From: an uncultured Eubacteriales bacterium
GTDB lineage: Bacteria; Bacillota; Clostridia; Christensenellales; CAG-138
Direction of reading: 5' to 3'
NCBI GenBank assembly: GCA_902798825.1
Contig: CADBYI010000003.1
Span: 1,993-65,992, forward strand
DNA length: 64,000 nt
The notes beneath the pieces are model-generated. The model saw nothing but the letters and a program-made list of their open reading frames with translations, was not told the origin of the DNA and made no database searches. A program made the translations under genes and the position numbers. This document shows, one piece after another, positions 2,359 through 58,985 of this stretch (its first letter is position 1; each line of letters begins with the position of its first letter).

Positions 2359-2632
2359 AGAACCGAGGCATTCCTCGGTTCTCAGCTTGTCAAAAAACCT
2401 TTTGACAAGCTGAGCAGGCTGTCAGCAAAGGATGGTAGAAACGGCGTTCTTCGCCCCGAATCTGTACAAAGGTACTGCAAGAGGGCGAAAACGCCGTTAA
2501 TTTGCGGCATCTCGTTAAAAAGAAATGGCGGCATGCGCCATTTCCACCTATATGTATACTCCTGTCCATTTTTTGCCGCAAATGGTCTGCCGCCTTTTTC
2601 GACAGCCTGAGAACCGAGGCATTCCTCGGTTC
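2359..2632 (+). repeat. Terminator-embedded structured repeat, copy 1 (core 2382..2609; duplicated 23-bp hairpin at 2359..2381 and 2610..2632)
   Basis: Core shares long conserved blocks with 37015..37261 (reverse strand) and 49637..49862. Flanks are identical copies of AGAACCGAGGCATTCCTCGGTTC. Only the distal copy is followed by a T-tract (CTTTTGTTTTG). Confidence 0.9.
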
Positions 2633-7504: not shown

Positions 7505-8743
7505 TCAATCGTCGTTCCAGGGGCGACGGGCCCAGACAAAGTTGCGTTTGAAGTATGACCCAAGATCCCGCTTCATCACCTTGCCGTTTCCGGAGGAGGC
7601 GTCGATCAAATTGCCACCGCCGATATAGATAGCGGTGTGACTGACGCCGCTGCTGGAATCGCTTCTGAAGAAGAGGATGTCCCCTTTCTCCAAATCGCTG
7701 ATGCTCGTGATCTTCTTCCATGCGCTCTTTTGTGAGTAGCCGGAGGAACTCATGCGCGTGACGTTGACACCGGCCTGCTTCAAGCACCAATAGACCAATC
7801 CGGAGCAGTCAAACTTGTTGGGGCCGCGACCACCGAGAACATATTCGCAGCCCAGCTTTTTTTCTGCCGCACGGATGAACTTGTCAATCCGGCCATCGGG
7901 CGTGGGCTTGGGCGTCTTGGTGGGGGTGGGCTTCGGCGTTTTGGTGGGTTTGGGGGTCCTCGTCGGCTTGGGCGTCTTGGTGACCTTGGGTGTCCTCGTC
8001 GGTTTCGGCGTCTTCGTGACTTTGGGCGTCCTTGTCGGCTTGGGCGTCTTCGTCGGCTTGGGTGTGGGCTTCTTCGTGGGCTTGGGTGTCTTCGTCGGCT
8101 TCGGCGTCGGTTTCTTCGTGGGTTTCGGCGTCTTGGTCGGCTTCGGCGTCGGCTTCTTCGTGGGCTTCGGCGTCTTCGTCGGCTTCGGCGTTTTCGTAGG
8201 CTTCGGCGTCGGCTTCTTTGTGGGTTTCGGCGTCTTGGTCGGTTTCGGCGTCTTGGTCGGTTTCGGCGTCGGCTTCTTCGTGGGTTTCGGTGTCTTCGTC
8301 GGCTTCGGAGTCTTCTTCGCCTTAGCCGTGGCTTTCTTCTTGCTGGACGTTTTCTCTGCCAGCTGTTCAGAGGACCTCTCCTCCGCCTGTTCTTTCTGGG
8401 CCTTCTCCCCCTCTGCGTCGTCCGTCTTCACATCGCCGGGGCGGCGGTACAAAACGATGGCACGCTGGGCCAAAGCAAAGGAGGGCATTGACCATTCGTC
8501 ATCAGCAGACCCCTCAGGCTGAGGCGTGGGAGAGACAGCTTGGAGGCTTGTCCCATTCCAGGCATCCTCACCGGTCGTCTCCACAGCGATCCCTTCCTCG
8601 ATAGCCTGCGGAATGGACAGGTAAAGACCCACCAGCAGGATCAGCAGCAGGGACAGAAAGGTTGCCGCCAGAAACAGCATGCGCCGGCCTCTGGTAGGCA
8701 CGCGGGCCGATAATTCGGTTTTTGACGTTTCCTGAGTATTCAT
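7505..8743 (-). CDS. NlpC/P60-family peptidoglycan endopeptidase with a long Pro/Thr/Lys-rich linker
   Basis: C-terminal [22 protein letters not shown]...[15 protein letters not shown] (Cys/His catalytic pattern) and an N-terminal TM anchor. The start is uncertain: ATG 8743 or TTG 8770. Confidence 0.85.
7900..8325 (-). repeat. Tandem ~18-bp coding repeat (PKPTKT units)
   Basis: More than 20 imperfect units of GGCTTCGGCGTCTTCGTC on the + strand. They encode (T/K)PKPTK repeats inside the NlpC/P60 gene. Confidence 0.85.
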
Positions 8744-8812
8744 AGGTATACTGTATCCTTTTTTTGTCAAATGCGCAAGGACAAGAGAAAAAAAGTCAAA
8801 TATTGTTCTTTT

Positions 8813-25491: not shown

Positions 25492-27918
25492 TTACTCCTC
25501 GGTCTTGAAGCCGGCGAACAGGTCGGCCAGGCTCGTGGTGGTGCTGGTCACCGGGGGCAGCTCGTAATCGCCATCCTCGCTGTTGCGGCGGCGGCGGTCC
25601 GGCCGGGACTCCCGGCGCTCGTCGTTGGCGGGACGCTCGCTGGAAGTGGGGCGCTCGCTCCGGGGACGACGCTCGCCACCGCTCTGGGCGGCGTTCTCGC
25701 GCTGGGCCCGGCGCTCCTGATAGATACGCTCCTTCTCGGCCCGCTCTGCGGCGATCTGCTCGGCGATCTCGGGATGCTCCTCCAGGGTGGCTTCCTTGCG
25801 GGAGAGGGAGATACGCTTGGCCTCGGGGTTCACCTCCAGGACCTTGCAGCGGACGATGTCGCCCACCTTCAGCTCGTCCTCCACCTTCTCGATGCGGCGG
25901 GTGGCCACCTGGGAGATGTGGATGAGGCCGTCGATGGTGGGTTCAAGGGCCACGAAGGCGCCGAAGGGAACGATGCGGACAACCTTGCCCTCCACGATGG
26001 TGCCTACGGGGTACTTTTCACCGGCCATGGTCCAGGGCTTGGGCTGAAGCTGCTTGTAGCCCAGGGAGATGCGCTTCTTTTCCTTGTCGACACCCAGGAT
26101 CAGCACGTCGATCTCCTGGTTGACGCTGAACACGTCGGAGGGGTGCTTGACCCGGCCCCAGGCCGCGTCGGTCACATGGACGAGGCCGTCCAAACCGCCG
26201 ATGTCCACGAAAGCGCCGAAGTCGGTGATCCGGCGGACGATGCCGTGGATCTTGGAGCCGACCACCAGGGCGTCCCACTTCTCCTGCTCACGAGCGGCGG
26301 CCTCCTCCAGAAGCACCTGCTTGATGGAGGCCACGATGCGCTTGCGCTGCTTGTCGATCTCCAAGACCTTGACCTTTACTTCCTTGCCCACGTACTCGCT
26401 GAGATTCTCAACATATTTGGTGGAAACGTGCGAAGCGGGGATAAAGGCGCGGACACCGCCCTCCATCTCGGCGATCAGGCCGCCCTTGACGACTTCCTTC
26501 ACCACCGCTTCGAAGGTCTTGCCCTCGGTCTCCTCAGCCATGAGATCGTCCCAGAACTTCTTGCTCTGGACGTTCTTCCGGGAAAGAAGCACGTTGCCCT
26601 CGCCGTCGTTCACCTTAACGACCTCAACATCGATCTCGTCGCCTTCCTTCACATCGATCTCGGCCTCGGGATCGGTGGAGAACTCGGCGCGGGGAATGTA
26701 GCCGTCGGACTTGTAGCCCACGTTGACCAGGATCTCACTGTCGGTGATGCCGATGACGGTACCGGTGACGATCTGGCCGGGGCGAATCCGGCGGATGGAG
26801 CTGTCGATGGCCTGCTGGAAGTCCTCGGCGGCGTCCTTCACGGGCGCGGCAGCTTCCTTGACTTCTTCGGCCACGGTCTCCACGGTCTCCTCTGCCTTGG
26901 CAGCCACTTCTTCAGCGGCCTGCTCAACAGCTTCTTCTGCCTTCACGACGACTTCCTCAGCCTTCTCAACGGCAGCGACAACGGGTTCTTCGGCCGCAAC
27001 AACAGCTTCTTCCACGGCCTTTTCGGTGGTTTCGGCGACTACCTCGGCGGGAGCTTCCGCTTCATTGGTGTCGATCGTCGTCTTTTCGAGTTCGCTCATT
27101 CCTTGTATAACCTCCATAATCATGGGGTCTGGCGTCGATGCGCCTGTGACCAAGCCTATTATATCATCCAATTTAAATATTTCAAGAGGAATTTTGCCGA
27201 TATCGTCTATCATTTTGGTGTCCAGACAGTGGATTTTACATAAATTCGCCAAGGCAAGGGTATTGGCGCTCTGTCCGGAGCCCAGCACCAGCATCTTCGT
27301 GCACCGGCGGGACAACCCCTCCGCCTCCTCCTGGCGGGTCCGGGTGGTGCGGCAGATGGTGTCGTGGACCACCAGATCGGGTACGCGGCGCTTGAGCACG
27401 GCAGCGATATCTTCGAAGGTTTTTTCGGACAGGGTGGTCTGGGCCACCAGGCAGCCGCCGTCGCCTAACTCTACCTGCTCCGCCTCCTCGGGGGTCTCCA
27501 AAATGATCGCCCTATCCTGGGCCCAGCCGGCGGTGCCGATGACCTCTGGATGGGTTCGCTTGCCAGCGATGTATACGGGGATACCTCCTTTGGCCGCAGC
27601 CTCGACGATGGGATGGATGCGGTGTACGAAGGGACAGGTGGCGTCCACGGTGCGGATGCCCCGCTTCCCGCAGTCCGCGAACAGGGACGGTGGCGCGCCG
27701 TGGGCCCGGATGATCAGGGTGTCCCCAGCCTCCAATCCGTCCAGCGTCTCCACCGGCAGAATGCCCTCCGCTGCCAGATCCCGGATCACGGTTTCGTTGT
27801 GGATCAGCTTGCCCCAGGTATAGACCCTGCCCCGTTCCCGGGCTTCCTTCCTGGCCAGCTCCACCGCCCGACGCACGCCGAAGCAGAACCCGGCGTTCTT
27901 CGCCACGATGACCCTCAT
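25492..27918 (-). CDS. ispH-rpsA: Bifunctional 4-hydroxy-3-methylbut-2-enyl diphosphate reductase (IspH) / 30S ribosomal protein S1 fusion
   Basis: The N-terminal ~280 aa are LytB/IspH-like (MRVIVAKNAGFCFGVRRAV...). An A/E/V-rich linker follows, then four S1 OB-fold repeats (e.g. GSKIHGIVRRITDFGAFVDI, GTIVEGKVVRIVPFGAFVAL) and an R/E-rich tail. Confidence 0.9.
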   Translation of the reverse strand: MRVIVAKNAGFCFGVRRAVELARKEARERGRVYTWGKLIHNETVIRDLAAEGILPVETLDGLEAGDTLIIRAHGAPPSLFADCGKRGIRTVDATCPFVHRIHPIVEAAAKGGIPVYIAGKRTHPEVIGTAGWAQDRAIILETPEEAEQVELGDGGCLVAQTTLSEKTFEDIAAVLKRRVPDLVVHDTICRTTRTRQEEAEGLSRRCTKMLVLGSGQSANTLALANLCKIHCLDTKMIDDIGKIPLEIFKLDDIIGLVTGASTPDPMIMEVIQGMSELEKTTIDTNEAEAPAEVVAETTEKAVEEAVVAAEEPVVAAVEKAEEVVVKAEEAVEQAAEEVAAKAEETVETVAEEVKEAAAPVKDAAEDFQQAIDSSIRRIRPGQIVTGTVIGITDSEILVNVGYKSDGYIPRAEFSTDPEAEIDVKEGDEIDVEVVKVNDGEGNVLLSRKNVQSKKFWDDLMAEETEGKTFEAVVKEVVKGGLIAEMEGGVRAFIPASHVSTKYVENLSEYVGKEVKVKVLEIDKQRKRIVASIKQVLLEEAAAREQEKWDALVVGSKIHGIVRRITDFGAFVDIGGLDGLVHVTDAAWGRVKHPSDVFSVNQEIDVLILGVDKEKKRISLGYKQLQPKPWTMAGEKYPVGTIVEGKVVRIVPFGAFVALEPTIDGLIHISQVATRRIEKVEDELKVGDIVRCKVLEVNPEAKRISLSRKEATLEEHPEIAEQIAAERAEKERIYQERRAQRENAAQSGGERRPRSERPTSSERPANDERRESRPDRRRRNSEDGDYELPPVTSTTTSLADLFAGFKTEE

Positions 27919-35921: not shown

Positions 35922-36929
35922 TCATTTTGTGAGATAGGCGCGGAGCCTGTCCAGCTGACCCATACAGTCCCCGTACCCCAGGGTATAGAGGGCCAGGAGC
36001 TTGTCCACGTCCCCCTCGATGGTCCCCACCTGGATGGGCCGGGAGGGCGTCATGTGCATCAGCCGTCCCTGCCGGTCCAGCCGTTCCAATTCCTCACACT
36101 GTTCGTTGTATCGGGCCGGTCCAGCTTCCAGCGCCGCCATGAGGGCCGGATATGCCCGGTAAAAGCGCCGCAGGGCGTTCTGCTCCCGGCGGGCCAGCCG
36201 TTCCGACAGGATGGGATAGGTCCGATATATCCTTTTGGACACGGGCAGCCCCCTTTTGGCCATTTCCTTCATCAGGGCCGGCGGTTCCCGGCGGGTCCTG
36301 CCCCCGTCCCGAAAGCTCCTGTCCCTGGTGCGGATCACCACGATCTTCTCATACCCCTGTTCCAGAGCCCAGGCGTAGGGGATCTTGCAGGCGCAGCCCC
36401 CGTCCAGATAGGGCGCCCCCTCCACCATGACCACGGGCGAGATAAAGGGCATGGTGGCGGAGGCCCTGGCCGCCATCAGGATGTTCACGCAGCGTCCCTT
36501 TTCAAAATAGGTGGCCTGCCCCGTCTGGCAGTCGGTGGCCACGGCCACATACCGCTGATCAGGCCGTTTGAATCGTTCATAGTCCAGGGGCTCCAGGATG
36601 CCCCTATCCTCCGTGAGAAAGCCCACATCCAAAATGCTGTGGCTGTGGAGCAGGGATTTTGCCCCCACATACCGGCTGTCGTGGCGGAAGGTCAGGTTCG
36701 TCCGGGCGGACCGGCCGATCTGACCGGAGACATAGTTGATCCCCGCCAGAGCCCCGGCGGACACGCCGATGACGCAGGACAGGTTCAGCCCGTTCTCCAT
36801 CATTGCGTCCAAGAAGCCCTGGGTGTACAGGCCCCGAAAGGCGCCGCCCTCCAGCACCAAGCACCCCTCTATCAGCTCGGGTCCCGCCTGGCCCCGGGGA
36901 ATATCCTCTATGCGCAAAAACTCCTTCAT
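35922..36929 (-). CDS. Patatin-like phospholipase family protein
   Basis: Motifs LEGGAFRG (GxGxxG), GVSAG (GxSxG) and YLDGG (DGA/G). Confidence 0.88.
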   Translation of the reverse strand: MKEFLRIEDIPRGQAGPELIEGCLVLEGGAFRGLYTQGFLDAMMENGLNLSCVIGVSAGALAGINYVSGQIGRSARTNLTFRHDSRYVGAKSLLHSHSILDVGFLTEDRGILEPLDYERFKRPDQRYVAVATDCQTGQATYFEKGRCVNILMAARASATMPFISPVVMVEGAPYLDGGCACKIPYAWALEQGYEKIVVIRTRDRSFRDGGRTRREPPALMKEMAKRGLPVSKRIYRTYPILSERLARREQNALRRFYRAYPALMAALEAGPARYNEQCEELERLDRQGRLMHMTPSRPIQVGTIEGDVDKLLALYTLGYGDCMGQLDRLRAYLTK

Positions 36930-36992: not shown

Positions 36993-37283
36993 AGAGGAGC
37001 CTTTCGGCTCCTCTCAGGCTGTCGAAAAAGGCGGCAGACCATTTGCGTCAAATAAATAGATGGGCGGTCTATGGATCGCCCCCACAGAACTAAAGGTTGA
37101 AATGGCGCCAGATGACGCCATTTCTTTTGAATAGGTGCCGCAAATTAACGGCGTTTTTCCCCTCTCGCGGTACCTTTGTACAGCTTCGGGGGAAAGAACG
37201 CCGTTTCTGCCATCCTTTGCTGACAGCCTGTTCTGCTTGTCAAAAGGTTTTTGACAAGCAGAGAGGAGCCGTTTGGCTCCTCT
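36993..37283 (-). repeat. Terminator-embedded structured repeat, copy 2 (core 37015..37261; duplicated 22-bp hairpin at 36993..37014 and 37262..37283)
   Basis: The reverse complement of the core aligns with copies 1 and 3. It lies directly after the groEL stop (37301). On the minus strand only the distal hairpin is followed by TTTTG. Confidence 0.9.
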
Positions 37284-37300: not shown

Positions 37301-38932
<1,632 letters not shown>

Positions 38933-49613: not shown

Positions 49614-49886
49614 AAGCACCGCCAGCAGCGGTGCTTCAGCTTGTCAAATACCTTTTGACAAGCTGAGCAGGCTGTCAGCAGAGGATGGCAGAAACGGCGT
49701 TCTTCGCCCCGAAGCTGTACAAAGGTACCGCGAGAGGGCGAAAACGCCGTTAATTTGCGACATCTCTATTCAAAAGAAATGGCGGTTTACGCCATTTCCT
49801 CCTACCAGTGATTCTTCAAATGTATTTGTCGCAAATGATCTGCCACCTTTTTCGACAGCCTGAAGCACCGCCAGCAAGCGGTGCTT
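49614..49886 (+). repeat. Terminator-embedded structured repeat, copy 3 (core 49637..49862; duplicated hairpin at 49614..49636 and 49863..49886)
   Basis: The core aligns with copies 1 and 2. It sits between a convergent carboxypeptidase gene and metK. The flanks are AAGCACCGC-loop-GCGGTGCTT with a 1-nt loop indel. Confidence 0.9.
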
Positions 49887-49903: not shown

Positions 49904-51037
49904 TCAGATGGACAGGTCCAGTCGCTCCCAGGGCATGTCCTCGGCGTTCTCGCCGAAGTGCCCATAGGCGGCCAGCTTGGAATAGATGGGCCGCCGAAGG
50001 CCGAACCGATTGATGATGGCCATGGGCCGCAAATCCACTGTCTCCATGATATGGTCCTTCAGGGCGCCCACATCGTTGATGTGGGCGGTACCGAAATCCT
50101 CAATGCGGAGGCTGGTGGGCCGGGCTACGCCGATGGCATAGGAGAGCTGGACCTCGCAGCGATCCATATATCCCCCGGCCACGATGTTCTTGGCCAGGTA
50201 TCGGGCCATGTACGCGCCGGTCCTGTCAACCTTGGTGGGGTCCTTTCCGGAGAAAGCGCCGCCGCCGTGACGGGCATAGCCGCCATAGGTGTCCACGATG
50301 ATCTTGCGGCCGGTGAGGCCCGTATCCCCCGCGGGACCGCCCACCACGAACCGACCGGTGGGATTGATGAAAAACGCCGTCCAGTCCCCCATCATGTTGG
50401 CGGGCAAAACGGGCAGGATCACCTGTTCCTTGAGGACCTGCCGCAGGGTGTCGATGTCGATGCTCTCCTTATGCTGGGCGGAAAGGACCACTGCCAGGAT
50501 GCGGCTGGGCACGTTGTCCCGATACTCTACCGTCACCTGAGACTTGCCGTCCGGCAGAAGGAAAGGCAACGTACCGTCGTTGCGCAGGGTCTCAAGACGC
50601 CTGGTGAGGCGGTGGGAGAGCTCGATGGGCAGGGGCATATAGTGCTCCGTCTCCCGGCAGGCGTAGCCGAACATCATGCCCTGATCCCCGGCGCCGATCT
50701 CCAGAGGATTGGCGTTGTCCACACCCATGGCGATGTCGGGAGACTGATGGTTCAAATCCACGTCGATGATGGCGGTGTCGCAGTCGAAGCCCCGATTCGG
50801 CTCCGTGTAGCCGGTCTCCCGGATCACCCGTCGGGAAACGGCTTCATAGTCCACCCGGGCGGAGCTGGTGATCTCCCCCATGATATGCATATGGTTCGTG
50901 TTGGCGGTCACTTCACAGGCCACGCGGGCAGCGGGGTCCTGGCTTAGGATAGCATCCAAAATGGCGTCGGCAGTCTTATCACACAGCTTGTCCGGGTGCC
51001 CCCCGGTCACGGATTCAGATGTAAAGCACGCAGGCAT
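49904..51037 (-). CDS. metK: S-adenosylmethionine synthase
   Basis: SESVTGGHPDKLCD and GAGDQGMMFGYA motifs. ATG at 51037 has an AGGAGAG SD. The ORF extends to a TTG at 51070. Confidence 0.95.
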   Translation of the reverse strand: MPACFTSESVTGGHPDKLCDKTADAILDAILSQDPAARVACEVTANTNHMHIMGEITSSARVDYEAVSRRVIRETGYTEPNRGFDCDTAIIDVDLNHQSPDIAMGVDNANPLEIGAGDQGMMFGYACRETEHYMPLPIELSHRLTRRLETLRNDGTLPFLLPDGKSQVTVEYRDNVPSRILAVVLSAQHKESIDIDTLRQVLKEQVILPVLPANMMGDWTAFFINPTGRFVVGGPAGDTGLTGRKIIVDTYGGYARHGGGAFSGKDPTKVDRTGAYMARYLAKNIVAGGYMDRCEVQLSYAIGVARPTSLRIEDFGTAHINDVGALKDHIMETVDLRPMAIINRFGLRRPIYSKLAAYGHFGENAEDMPWERLDLSI

Positions 51038-51073
51038 CTCTTTCTCTCCTGTCCTTCGGTATTTTAGCAAGCT

Positions 51074-58642: not shown

Positions 58643-58719
58643 CTGGGTGTAGCGCAGTTTGGTAGCGTGCTTGAATGGGGTTCAAGAGGCCGGAAGTTCA
58701 AATCTTCTCACCCAGACCA
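58643..58719 (+). tRNA. tRNA-Pro (anticodon GGG), CCA encoded
   Basis: Manual cloverleaf: acceptor CTGGGTG/CACCCAG, D stem GCGC/GCGT, anticodon stem CTTGA/TCAAG with loop A-T-GGG-G-T (G37), T arm GGAAG-TTCAAAT-CTTCT, then A-CCA. Confidence 0.9.
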
Positions 58720-58725
58720 AAGAAA

Positions 58726-58756
58726 AGAGACAGGGTATAACCTGGCTCTTTTTTTG
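58726..58756 (+). terminator. Intrinsic terminator after tRNA-Pro
   Basis: AGAGACAGG-GTATAA-CCTGGCTCT (one A.G mismatch) followed by TTTTTTTG. Confidence 0.7.
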
Positions 58757-58770
58757 TTTTTGTTCAAGGG

Positions 58771-58790
58771 ACTTCCGGCCTCTTGAACCC
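58771..58790 (-). repeat. Inverted 20-nt copy of an internal tRNA-Pro segment
   Basis: ACTTCCGGCCTCTTGAACCC is the exact reverse complement of tRNA positions 58678..58697. Confidence 0.95.
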
Positions 58791-58903
58791 TAAGAGGGGT
58801 TGTCTGCCGGTCGCCGTCAGGCGATTTCGGCCATCCTGTGAATGGTCGAAAAGGCGGACAACGGGCGGCAGTCCGCTGCGCAACAGCGGCAAGTCCGCCC
58901 CGG

Positions 58904-58972
58904 GGCCGGAAGTTCAAATCTTCTCACCCAGACCAAAGAAAAGAGACAGGATTACAACCTGGCTCTTTTCCT
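58904..58972 (+). repeat. Direct duplicate of the tRNA-Pro 3' half plus trailer and terminator-like hairpin
   Basis: 58904..58950 is identical (47/47) to 58688..58734. It is followed by the same hairpin stem with a different loop (ATTACAA versus GTATAA) and a T-run. No matching 5' acceptor strand is present. Confidence 0.95.
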
Positions 58973-58985
58973 TTTGTTTGAAACA

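Follow-up and report, generated by a model that had tools for sequence, protein, structure and literature searches.

How does a short repeat come to stand, at each of its sites, between two copies of a hairpin whose sequence differs from site to site? The question is raised by a 64,000-nt stretch of DNA from an uncultured Eubacteriales bacterium, called the window throughout, in which repeat searches detected three copies of one element (copies 1-3 below) and no more. These copies measure about 227-247 bp, and only spurious open reading frames (ORFs) cross them. We conclude that they belong to a family of hairpin-targeting mini-transposons which is real and recently active, and whose target duplication is the whole terminator stem-loop.

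Duplicated hairpins around the window copies

The three copies share one layout. Stop codon, hairpin, element, hairpin and T-rich tract follow one another in this order, and the element always lies on the strand of the upstream gene. An earlier note on this DNA had claimed that a hairpin peculiar to the locus stands on both sides of each copy, and the hairpin sequences are confirmed at all six positions given below. Each copy has a different repeat of 22-24 nt, and every one of these repeats is a perfect palindromic stem-loop; this is not chance. The elements between them are alike, with about 80% column identity across the aligned regions of the three-copy alignment, with ...CAGCTTGTC as the left and CGACAGCCTG... 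as the right limit of their similarity.

Copy 1, on the plus strand, is enclosed by two identical copies of the 23-mer AGAACCGAGGCATTCCTCGGTTC. The proximal one (2359..2381), the left target duplication, has no T-tract and continues into the element, and the distal one (2610..2632) is followed by CTTTTGTTTT. Among the hairpins flanking the window copies, this distal hairpin is the only one to be scored as an intrinsic terminator when the sense strand is read. The element itself occupies 2382..2610 if its ends are read as TCAG...CTGA and 2383-2609 if they are read as CAG...CTG. Base 2610 (A) is common to the element and the distal stem-loop, and the border is ambiguous by 1 nt.

Copy 2 lies on the minus strand directly downstream of groEL (37301..38929, minus strand), whose terminator is its target. 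The two hairpins read AGAGGAGCC-TTTC-GGCTCCTCT at 36993-37014 and AGAGGAGCC-GTTT-GGCTCCTCT at 37262-37283, with the same stems and two differing loop positions. Read on the minus strand, the groEL-proximal stem-loop (37262..37283) is AGAGGAGCC-AAAC-GGCTCCTCT; the distal one (36993..37014) has the loop GAAA and is followed by TTTGCTTG and then by the promoter region of a patatin-like gene. The element (37015..37261, 247 nt) has an extra internal hairpin of about 21 nt compared with copies 1 and 3. This hairpin (37060-37085; GGGCGGTCTATGGATCGCCCCC on the plus strand) is present in all alleles of the groEL locus.

Copy 3, on the plus strand, occupies 49637..49862 downstream of a D-Ala-D-Ala carboxypeptidase gene. 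Its proximal stem-loop is AAGCACCGC-CAGCA-GCGGTGCTT (49614..49636), and the distal one (49863..49886), situated between convergent genes, has one extra loop A (CAGCAA).

Empty groEL terminators in relatives

Relatives were reached through groEL, and the DNA downstream of their groEL genes was read. Where groEL was 97-99% identical (L080-L103), the groEL terminator consisted of one hairpin and a T-tract, and no element was present. In fourteen of these relatives (L080-L093; GroEL 98-99% identical), the stop codon is followed after about 20 nt by a single hairpin and a T-tract. The hairpin has the window's AGAGGAG/CTCCTCT-type stem, with 1-2 stem bases differing in some alleles. The remaining ten (L094-L103) have one hairpin, different from that of the window, again with a T-tract. 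The element was found in all strains with the gene order of the window (L046, L104-L108).

The earlier note had pictured the ancestral site as stop codon, one hairpin and T-tract, to which the element and one hairpin copy were added at the hairpin foot. The element-free relatives match this picture on both points, and the check for pre-existing tandem hairpins at empty sites found a single hairpin at the groEL terminator. Since the relatives have a single hairpin, the duplication arose together with the insertion. In one element-carrying allele (L106) both hairpin copies have the same loop, AAAC, so the loop differences seen in the window are ordinary later drift.

A patatin-like phospholipase gene (35922-36929), located between groEL and a beta-propeller gene, occurs only in the element-carrying strains. 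The empty-terminator relatives L080-L093 are without it, and the right flank of copy 2 is therefore not orthologous to the right flank of the empty site.

Hairpin duplication at further loci

When public genomes were scanned with an 18-mer conserved in the interior, all related elements came from rumen and gut Clostridia; the other 18-mer matches belonged to unrelated taxa. A metagenome scan with the 3' terminal 24-mer yielded 33 loci of the window's own subfamily, for which all junctions were inspected and flanks scored. A survey of copies elsewhere for flanking duplications had been proposed in the earlier note. Duplicated hairpins turned out to be present at 13 more independent loci, taken from metagenomes and, in one case (L113), from a phage contig; together with the window copies this makes 16. 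The lengths are 22 nt at L048, 25 nt at L053 and L064, 22-24 nt at L054, 27 nt at L059, 23 nt at L061, 24 nt at L069, 29/30 nt at L068, 32 nt at both L071 and L073, and 23 and 21-23 nt at the two sites of L066 (L066a and L066b).

Over the 16 loci the duplication measures about 20-32 nt and in every case extends from foot to foot of the local stem-loop. The lengths cluster at 22-25 nt (median 24), stems of 9 bp going with duplications of 22-25 nt and stems of 13-14 bp with duplications of 32 nt. The claim that duplication length follows hairpin size thus holds well beyond the window. Perfect repeats were found at eight loci, namely window copy 1 and seven of the 13 further ones. The same note had held that paired hairpins diverge only in their loops, both stems being kept. 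This applies to window copies 2 and 3 and does not hold in general, as stem differences occur at L048, L069 and L068 and in the terminal pairs of L054 and L066b.

In 33 of 36 distinct right flanks, the stem-loop starts 0-2 nt past the element end, and wherever the left junction was assembled it shows the same stem-loop as the right side, with the single exception of L031/L070. The 30 different flanking stem-loops have their shape in common and no primary sequence; the duplicated sequences share no motif except a frequent A...T outer pair. One terminator (L066b) has received two insertions and has three hairpin copies. At L062 and L063 the element is nested right behind the internal hairpin P4 (described below) of another element copy, which indicates that any stable hairpin can be a target.

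At 22 of 29 loci the neighbouring gene on the right runs on the opposite strand, which places most sites between convergent genes. Such sites are symmetric bidirectional terminators and should extrude cruciforms well. Element orientation, compared with terminator polarity as scored from T-tracts and A-tracts, was 10 versus 4 (p = 0.18), a bias that is not significant; most sites are convergent-gene terminators, at which orientation is little informative. The co-orientation of element and gene in the window may be an effect of small sample or of retention. Shortened copies (L066b, L062, L074, L075, L077) arose by internal deletion, their first bases TCAG being preserved, and the deletion in L078 also takes 3 nt of the left hairpin. 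We considered 5' truncation as a sign of reverse transcription and rejected it, since the short copies keep TCAG and L078 is a deletion into the left hairpin.

In the metagenome-assembled genome (MAG) RGIG3365, from goat reticulum or rumen (L001-L045), a diverged relative of the core is present more than 40 times; its identity is about 70%, and the sequences of its closing stem are different. The copies are mostly situated at contig ends, some in tandem or beside other short repeats. Their 3' end is often directly next to a convergent gene's stop codon, and around them no duplicated hairpin was seen.

Element ends and a second family that shares them

The ends of the element are inverted repeats that match imperfectly, (T)CAGSYTGTCRAAAAA...CTG(A). 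Its 5' end, CAGCTTGTCAAAAAACC, matches the reverse complement of the 3' end, CAGGCTGTCGAAAAAGG, in 13 of 17 positions. The end motif recurs twice more inside the left end. One is inverted and forms a palindrome of about 29-30 nt, and the other is direct and stands at the start of the core. In copy 2 this 5' end module is a 29-nt palindrome made of the outer terminal repeat and its inverted copy (CTGCTTGTCAAAAACCTTTTGACAAGCAG; 37233..37261, minus strand), and the 3' terminal inverted repeat reads CCTTTTTCGACAGCCTG on the minus strand (37015..37031).

At three loci (window copy 1, L054 and L113) the outermost duplicated base is mismatched. Reading the ends as TCAG...CTGA makes all three perfect repeats, and the element may thus end in TCAG...CTGA rather than CAG...CTG, the border being uncertain by one base on each side. 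Duplications are 2 nt shorter under this reading, those in the window measuring 22, 20 and 21/22 nt.

These traits are those of a MITE, a miniature transposable element with inverted repeats. The family has terminal inverted repeats, a target duplication at 16 loci and an element-free orthologous groEL site. It is 227-247 bp long, has no transposase gene and is dispersed: the 64 kb of the window contain three copies, the metagenomes gave 33 loci, and one MAG has more than 40 related copies.

The phage contig L113 (IMG/VR; 310-476) carries a different mini-element of about 190 nt, whose interior is unrelated to that of the window family. Its ends, (C)CAGAGTGTCGAAAAACC...CCTTTTTCGACAGCCTG(A), are the same as those of the window family, and it too stands between two copies of a hairpin, GGAGAGGTTAGCAAACCTCTCC, with a T-tract behind. 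As the same ends and the same duplication go together here with an unrelated interior, hairpin duplication goes with the ends and not with the interior.

Decayed relatives of this second family were found on plasmids of Vescimonas fastidiosa (L115:2476-2632; L117:7040-7175 and 26660-26770). They separate a hairpin from its T-tract, lack a second hairpin and have a decayed appearance. On the second of these plasmids (L117:540-600), directly behind a terminator hairpin, there is also a palindrome of about 40 nt made of two halves resembling the terminal repeat (GACTGTCGAAAAACCC...GGGTTTTTCCGACA) and similar to the palindrome of about 30 nt at the left end of the window element. It may be a minimal element or an excision remnant.

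Another arrangement was noticed at a tRNA gene of the window (58643-58716). Its last 29 nt are doubled together with the downstream terminator hairpin (58688-58760 and 58904-58975); the first 47 nt of the two units are the same, and the hairpin loops differ. Between them lie about 140-170 nt with an inverted copy of the T-arm region and GGTCGAAAAGGCGG, which resembles the terminal repeat of the element. The whole (58643-58975) may be a remnant of tRNA integration or a decayed relative of the element.

A conserved four-helix core

The core is conserved beyond the window subfamily, copies from other genera being about 70-80% identical over the core only. We aligned 30 cores for analysis of their fold. 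RNAalifold predicted 53 pairs, 32 of them with compensatory changes. In the named structure 97.7% of cells are paired and 31 pairs are changed on both sides; in controls, in which the 3' partner was slid by 1-3 columns, the corresponding values were 40-51% and 4-10. The core is thus a conserved four-helix single-strand fold kept by compensatory changes, and it is new here.

The closing stem is formed by the pair of terminal repeats and would co-vary anyway. P2 is a long helix with a small apical hairpin, P3 is formed by TTTGCGGC/GCCGCAAA and P4 by GAAATGGCG/CGCCATTTC. G-U pairs occur mostly on one strand, in the window the sense strand of the upstream gene; pair 22-207, for instance, is U-G in 10 sequences. 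P4 (GAAATGGCG...CGCCATTTC at 37099..37124 on the minus strand in copy 2; 2527-2548 and 49782-49803 in copies 1 and 3) is preceded by an A-run. The opposite strand accordingly reads as a hairpin followed by TTTTG and scores as intrinsic-terminator-like for antisense transcription.

No Rfam 15 family matched the core, either in a search of the whole window at gathering thresholds, which returned one tRNA only, or in a search of copy 1 at an E-value of 10. The best matches were at chance level (E-value 0.6 or higher), far under the gathering scores.

Two element copies contain a purine-rich insert of about 108 nt in the apical part of P2 (L104:3765-3874; L076:5609-5710), about 75% alike by eye. 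It is absent from the orthologous groEL-locus copies (window, L105-L108), hence mobile or spread by conversion.

Comparison with known systems

The closest likeness in target choice is to IS1272 and TnSha1, DDE elements of the IS1182 family in staphylococci. They insert into terminator hairpins of 22-30 bp without primary sequence specificity; the targets have stems of 9-12 bp and are mostly intrinsic terminators just downstream of genes. The terminal inverted repeats of IS1272 are 16 bp long, and the target stem-loop is deleted or replaced, so that no target duplication arises (PMC4923244, PMC5678879). Shared with the window element are the targeting of stem-loops regardless of sequence, the short terminal inverted repeats and multiple independent hits in one hairpin. 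Unlike them, the window element has no transposase gene and has a conserved structured interior.

Wan et al. 2017 (PMC5678879) considered three theoretical outcomes of attack on a cruciform, one of which (Fig 13, pathway b), the joining at the 5' feet, leads to doubling of the entire stem-loop. The product predicted there is the product seen here. There it was theoretical, with no example, and here the evidence for it is comparative only.

Bacterial MITEs such as Correia, RUP, ERIC and MITEPye1 (the last of the IS1182 family) make short duplications of fixed length, 2-10 bp, that of MITEPye1 being 4 bp. The likeness to our family is broad, as these MITEs are also short, intergenic and without ORF, with terminal inverted repeats, direct repeats, many copies and a stable RNA fold (PMC3184786, PMC10969869, PMC11578231). 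The difference lies in the duplication, which in the window family is 20-32 nt long and set by the structure of the target.

Class C group II introns settle just 3' of terminator stem-loops, which they recognise by shape. They are ribozymes of several hundred nucleotides or more with a reverse transcriptase gene, and they enter single-stranded DNA by reverse splicing without making a duplication. The position beside a terminator stem-loop is common to both; the window element is small, duplicates its target and has no match to an intron family of Rfam. Such an intron was therefore rejected as a candidate, on the absence of Rfam matches at the gathering threshold or at an E-value of 10 and on the presence of the duplication.

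Whole palindromic units are also duplicated in CRISPR arrays. Cas1-Cas2 makes a staggered attack at both ends of the partly palindromic repeat, and gap repair doubles the whole repeat. The insert is a spacer of about 30 bp, and repeat length is read by a ruler together with sequence motifs. No cas genes or arrays are involved in the case of the window element. In vitro, palindromes that tend to form cruciforms are reportedly favoured (PMC4940900).

Elements of the IS1202 subgroup have direct repeats of 27-28 bp and ends that start with TGT (bioRxiv 10.1101/2022.12.17.520857). They resemble the window element in the great length of the repeats and differ from it in that this length is fixed and no hairpin targeting has been described. 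Membership in this family was rejected on the end sequence, (T)CAG...CTG(A) and not TGT, and on the variable duplication length (~20-32 nt).

Proposed mechanism

Observed are the insertion and the duplication, a duplication length that depends on the stem-loop, the repeats at the ends and the conservation of the fold. What we infer is the enzyme class, an attack on cruciforms at the 5' feet, transcriptional read-through and a role of the RNA. We consider it probable, with considerable room for doubt, that the window repeats represent a MITE-like, non-autonomous transposon whose movement depends, in trans, on a DDE-type transposase; this enzyme would attack hairpins, once extruded, at their 5' feet. 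Action of a transposase in trans is suggested by the inverted-repeat ends, the repeated end motifs, the clean duplication and the second family with the same ends.

A transposase encoded elsewhere would bind the element ends; most likely it would be of the DDE type, like the enzymes that move IS1272 and other IS1182-family elements. It would choose its target by shape and not by sequence, taking stem-loops rich in GC with 8-14 bp that are extruded from the duplex as a hairpin or cruciform; in practice these are intrinsic terminators. Staggered cuts one whole stem-loop apart, followed by gap repair, would then leave a copy of the stem-loop on each side of the element. The expected product is stop codon, hairpin without T-tract, element, and hairpin with T-tract. 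Transcription of the upstream gene probably passes the first hairpin, takes the element into the 3' untranslated region (UTR) and stops at the second hairpin. The earlier note had offered two mechanisms. Staggered attack at the base of an extruded hairpin fits best, given the inverted repeats and the L113 element, and template switching fits less well.

Several facts weigh against a DDE transposon of this kind. No autonomous element or transposase with matching ends was detected, whether in the window itself, among about 120 fetched loci and viral contigs, or on a Vescimonas plasmid of 142 kb. Pairs of end motifs 0.8-3 kb apart, sought in all loci, gave no autonomous partner, and proteins recurring on unrelated contigs were orthologues only. 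Three scans of viral contigs found the L113 family and no insertion sequence; BLAST of plasmids and phages with both element types likewise gave no autonomous partner. Full annotation of the Vescimonas plasmid pMM35_02, which carries related mini-elements, revealed no transposase, and a Pfam scan of ten window proteins no transposase or integrase. Some copies (L031/L070, L029, L075/L079, L077/L056 and Vescimonas L115) have the hairpin on one side only, so that a second outcome or later loss is needed; they may come from such a loss or from another geometry, in which the joining is at the 3' feet and is resolved by replication. IS1272 and TnSha1 delete their target hairpin and the window element duplicates its own, the likeness being one of targeting and not of outcome. 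Removal of the stem-loop is a trait of IS1272 and not necessarily of the whole IS1182 family. Finally, a DDE transposon has no need of a multi-helix fold so strongly conserved and explains it only loosely. The fold is not needed for hairpin targeting either and is the least explained part of the finding.

In another reading, which we regard as unlikely and still worth keeping in mind, the element would belong to a so far undescribed mobility system. The four-helix RNA or single-stranded DNA fold would there serve as scaffold or recognition module for a structure-specific integrase, and an RNA- or transcription-linked step would recognise terminator hairpins and double them, or else the element would be a 3' UTR module retained by the host. 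As for such retention, the doubled terminator with the embedded structured RNA could act as a 3' UTR module for stability or processing. Unlikely as well is copying through RNA or by copy-choice, in which element RNA from the 3' UTR (or a DNA copy) would template a reverse transcriptase or a stalled replicative polymerase, and a template switch at the hairpin feet would copy the hairpin twice. The conserved single-strand fold would suit it, as would the G-U pairs found mainly on the strand sense to the upstream gene, the position of an element without its own promoter downstream of a co-oriented gene at nearly all sites with known left flank, and the fact that no transposase was found nearby. 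The terminal inverted repeats and the further end-motif copies, however, resemble protein-binding sites, and L113, with the same ends and an unrelated interior without the fold, makes the same duplication. There is also no A-tail, the short copies are internal deletions keeping TCAG and not 5' truncations, and the orientations counted against terminator polarity (10 versus 4, p = 0.18) show no significant bias. Insertion of single-stranded DNA beside a folded hairpin is improbable in our view, whether by an HUH enzyme (IS200/IS605-like), by an integron-type tyrosine recombinase at the replication fork or by reverse splicing like that of class C group II introns. It would explain an insertion point exactly at the hairpin foot whatever the hairpin sequence, the single-strand fold, and the one-sided hairpin of some members, which is what such mechanisms lead one to expect. 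They make no target duplication, however, and 16 loci have the full hairpin duplicated; moreover, both orientations are represented among the window copies, over 64 kb, and agree with the local gene rather than with one direction of replication, no group II intron or other Rfam match was found, and the element is too small for a group II-type ribozyme.

A long, nearly fixed stagger of the IS1202-family kind, with preference for palindromic sites, would make the agreement between duplication and hairpin a coincidence. Most duplications do fall at 22-25 nt around a median of 24, and long direct repeats are known for IS1202-group elements (bioRxiv 10.1101/2022.12.17.520857). We hold this to be very improbable. 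The range of about 20-32 nt always ends at the feet of the local stem, the 32 nt of L071 and L073 (stems of 14 and 13 bp) against the 22 nt of window copy 2 and L048 (9-bp stems) contradict a fixed stagger, and IS1202-family ends start with TGT, those of the element with (T)CAG. That tandem hairpins are older than the element, which inserted between them, has the arrangement itself in its favour and nothing more, and is extremely improbable. The orthologous groEL terminator of relatives has a single hairpin, which refutes the idea for that locus; eight loci have perfectly identical copies, and L066b has two insertions together with three hairpin copies.

Significance of the duplicated terminator

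A target-site duplication is normally a transposase fingerprint of fixed length; here the folded target sets the length. The loci described above are natural evidence, from many sites, for a bacterial transposition machine that would attack extruded hairpins at their feet, which had earlier only been sketched for IS1272. What appears to be new is the outcome: the choice of target is like that of IS1272 and other IS1182-family elements, and the result is duplication, not deletion. The system is tractable for studying cruciform formation at terminators in living cells. The structured core, unexplained and strongly conserved, merits a study of its own.

There are practical consequences as well. 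The element breaks metagenome assemblies, most copies in one MAG being located at contig ends, and repeat finders that expect short duplications will misplace its borders. Housekeeping genes, groEL among them, acquire from it a double terminator and a conserved, highly structured RNA in their 3' UTRs, so that termination and mRNA stability may change.

Other features

The convergent neighbour of copy 3 is metK (49904-51070, minus strand); an exact-protein look-up of this metK returned no record. In the relatives L094-L103, runs of GACAAA/GACAAG hexamers, of strain-variable length, occur about 130-330 nt past groEL inside a small called ORF (54-106 aa), where they represent a length-variable Asp-Lys repeat. 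In the window itself, a long imperfect tandem repeat (7897-8376) is located in a minus-strand ORF (7505-8770), with start-to-start spacings of 18 and 24 nt and 17 registers; it presumably codes for a repetitive protein segment.

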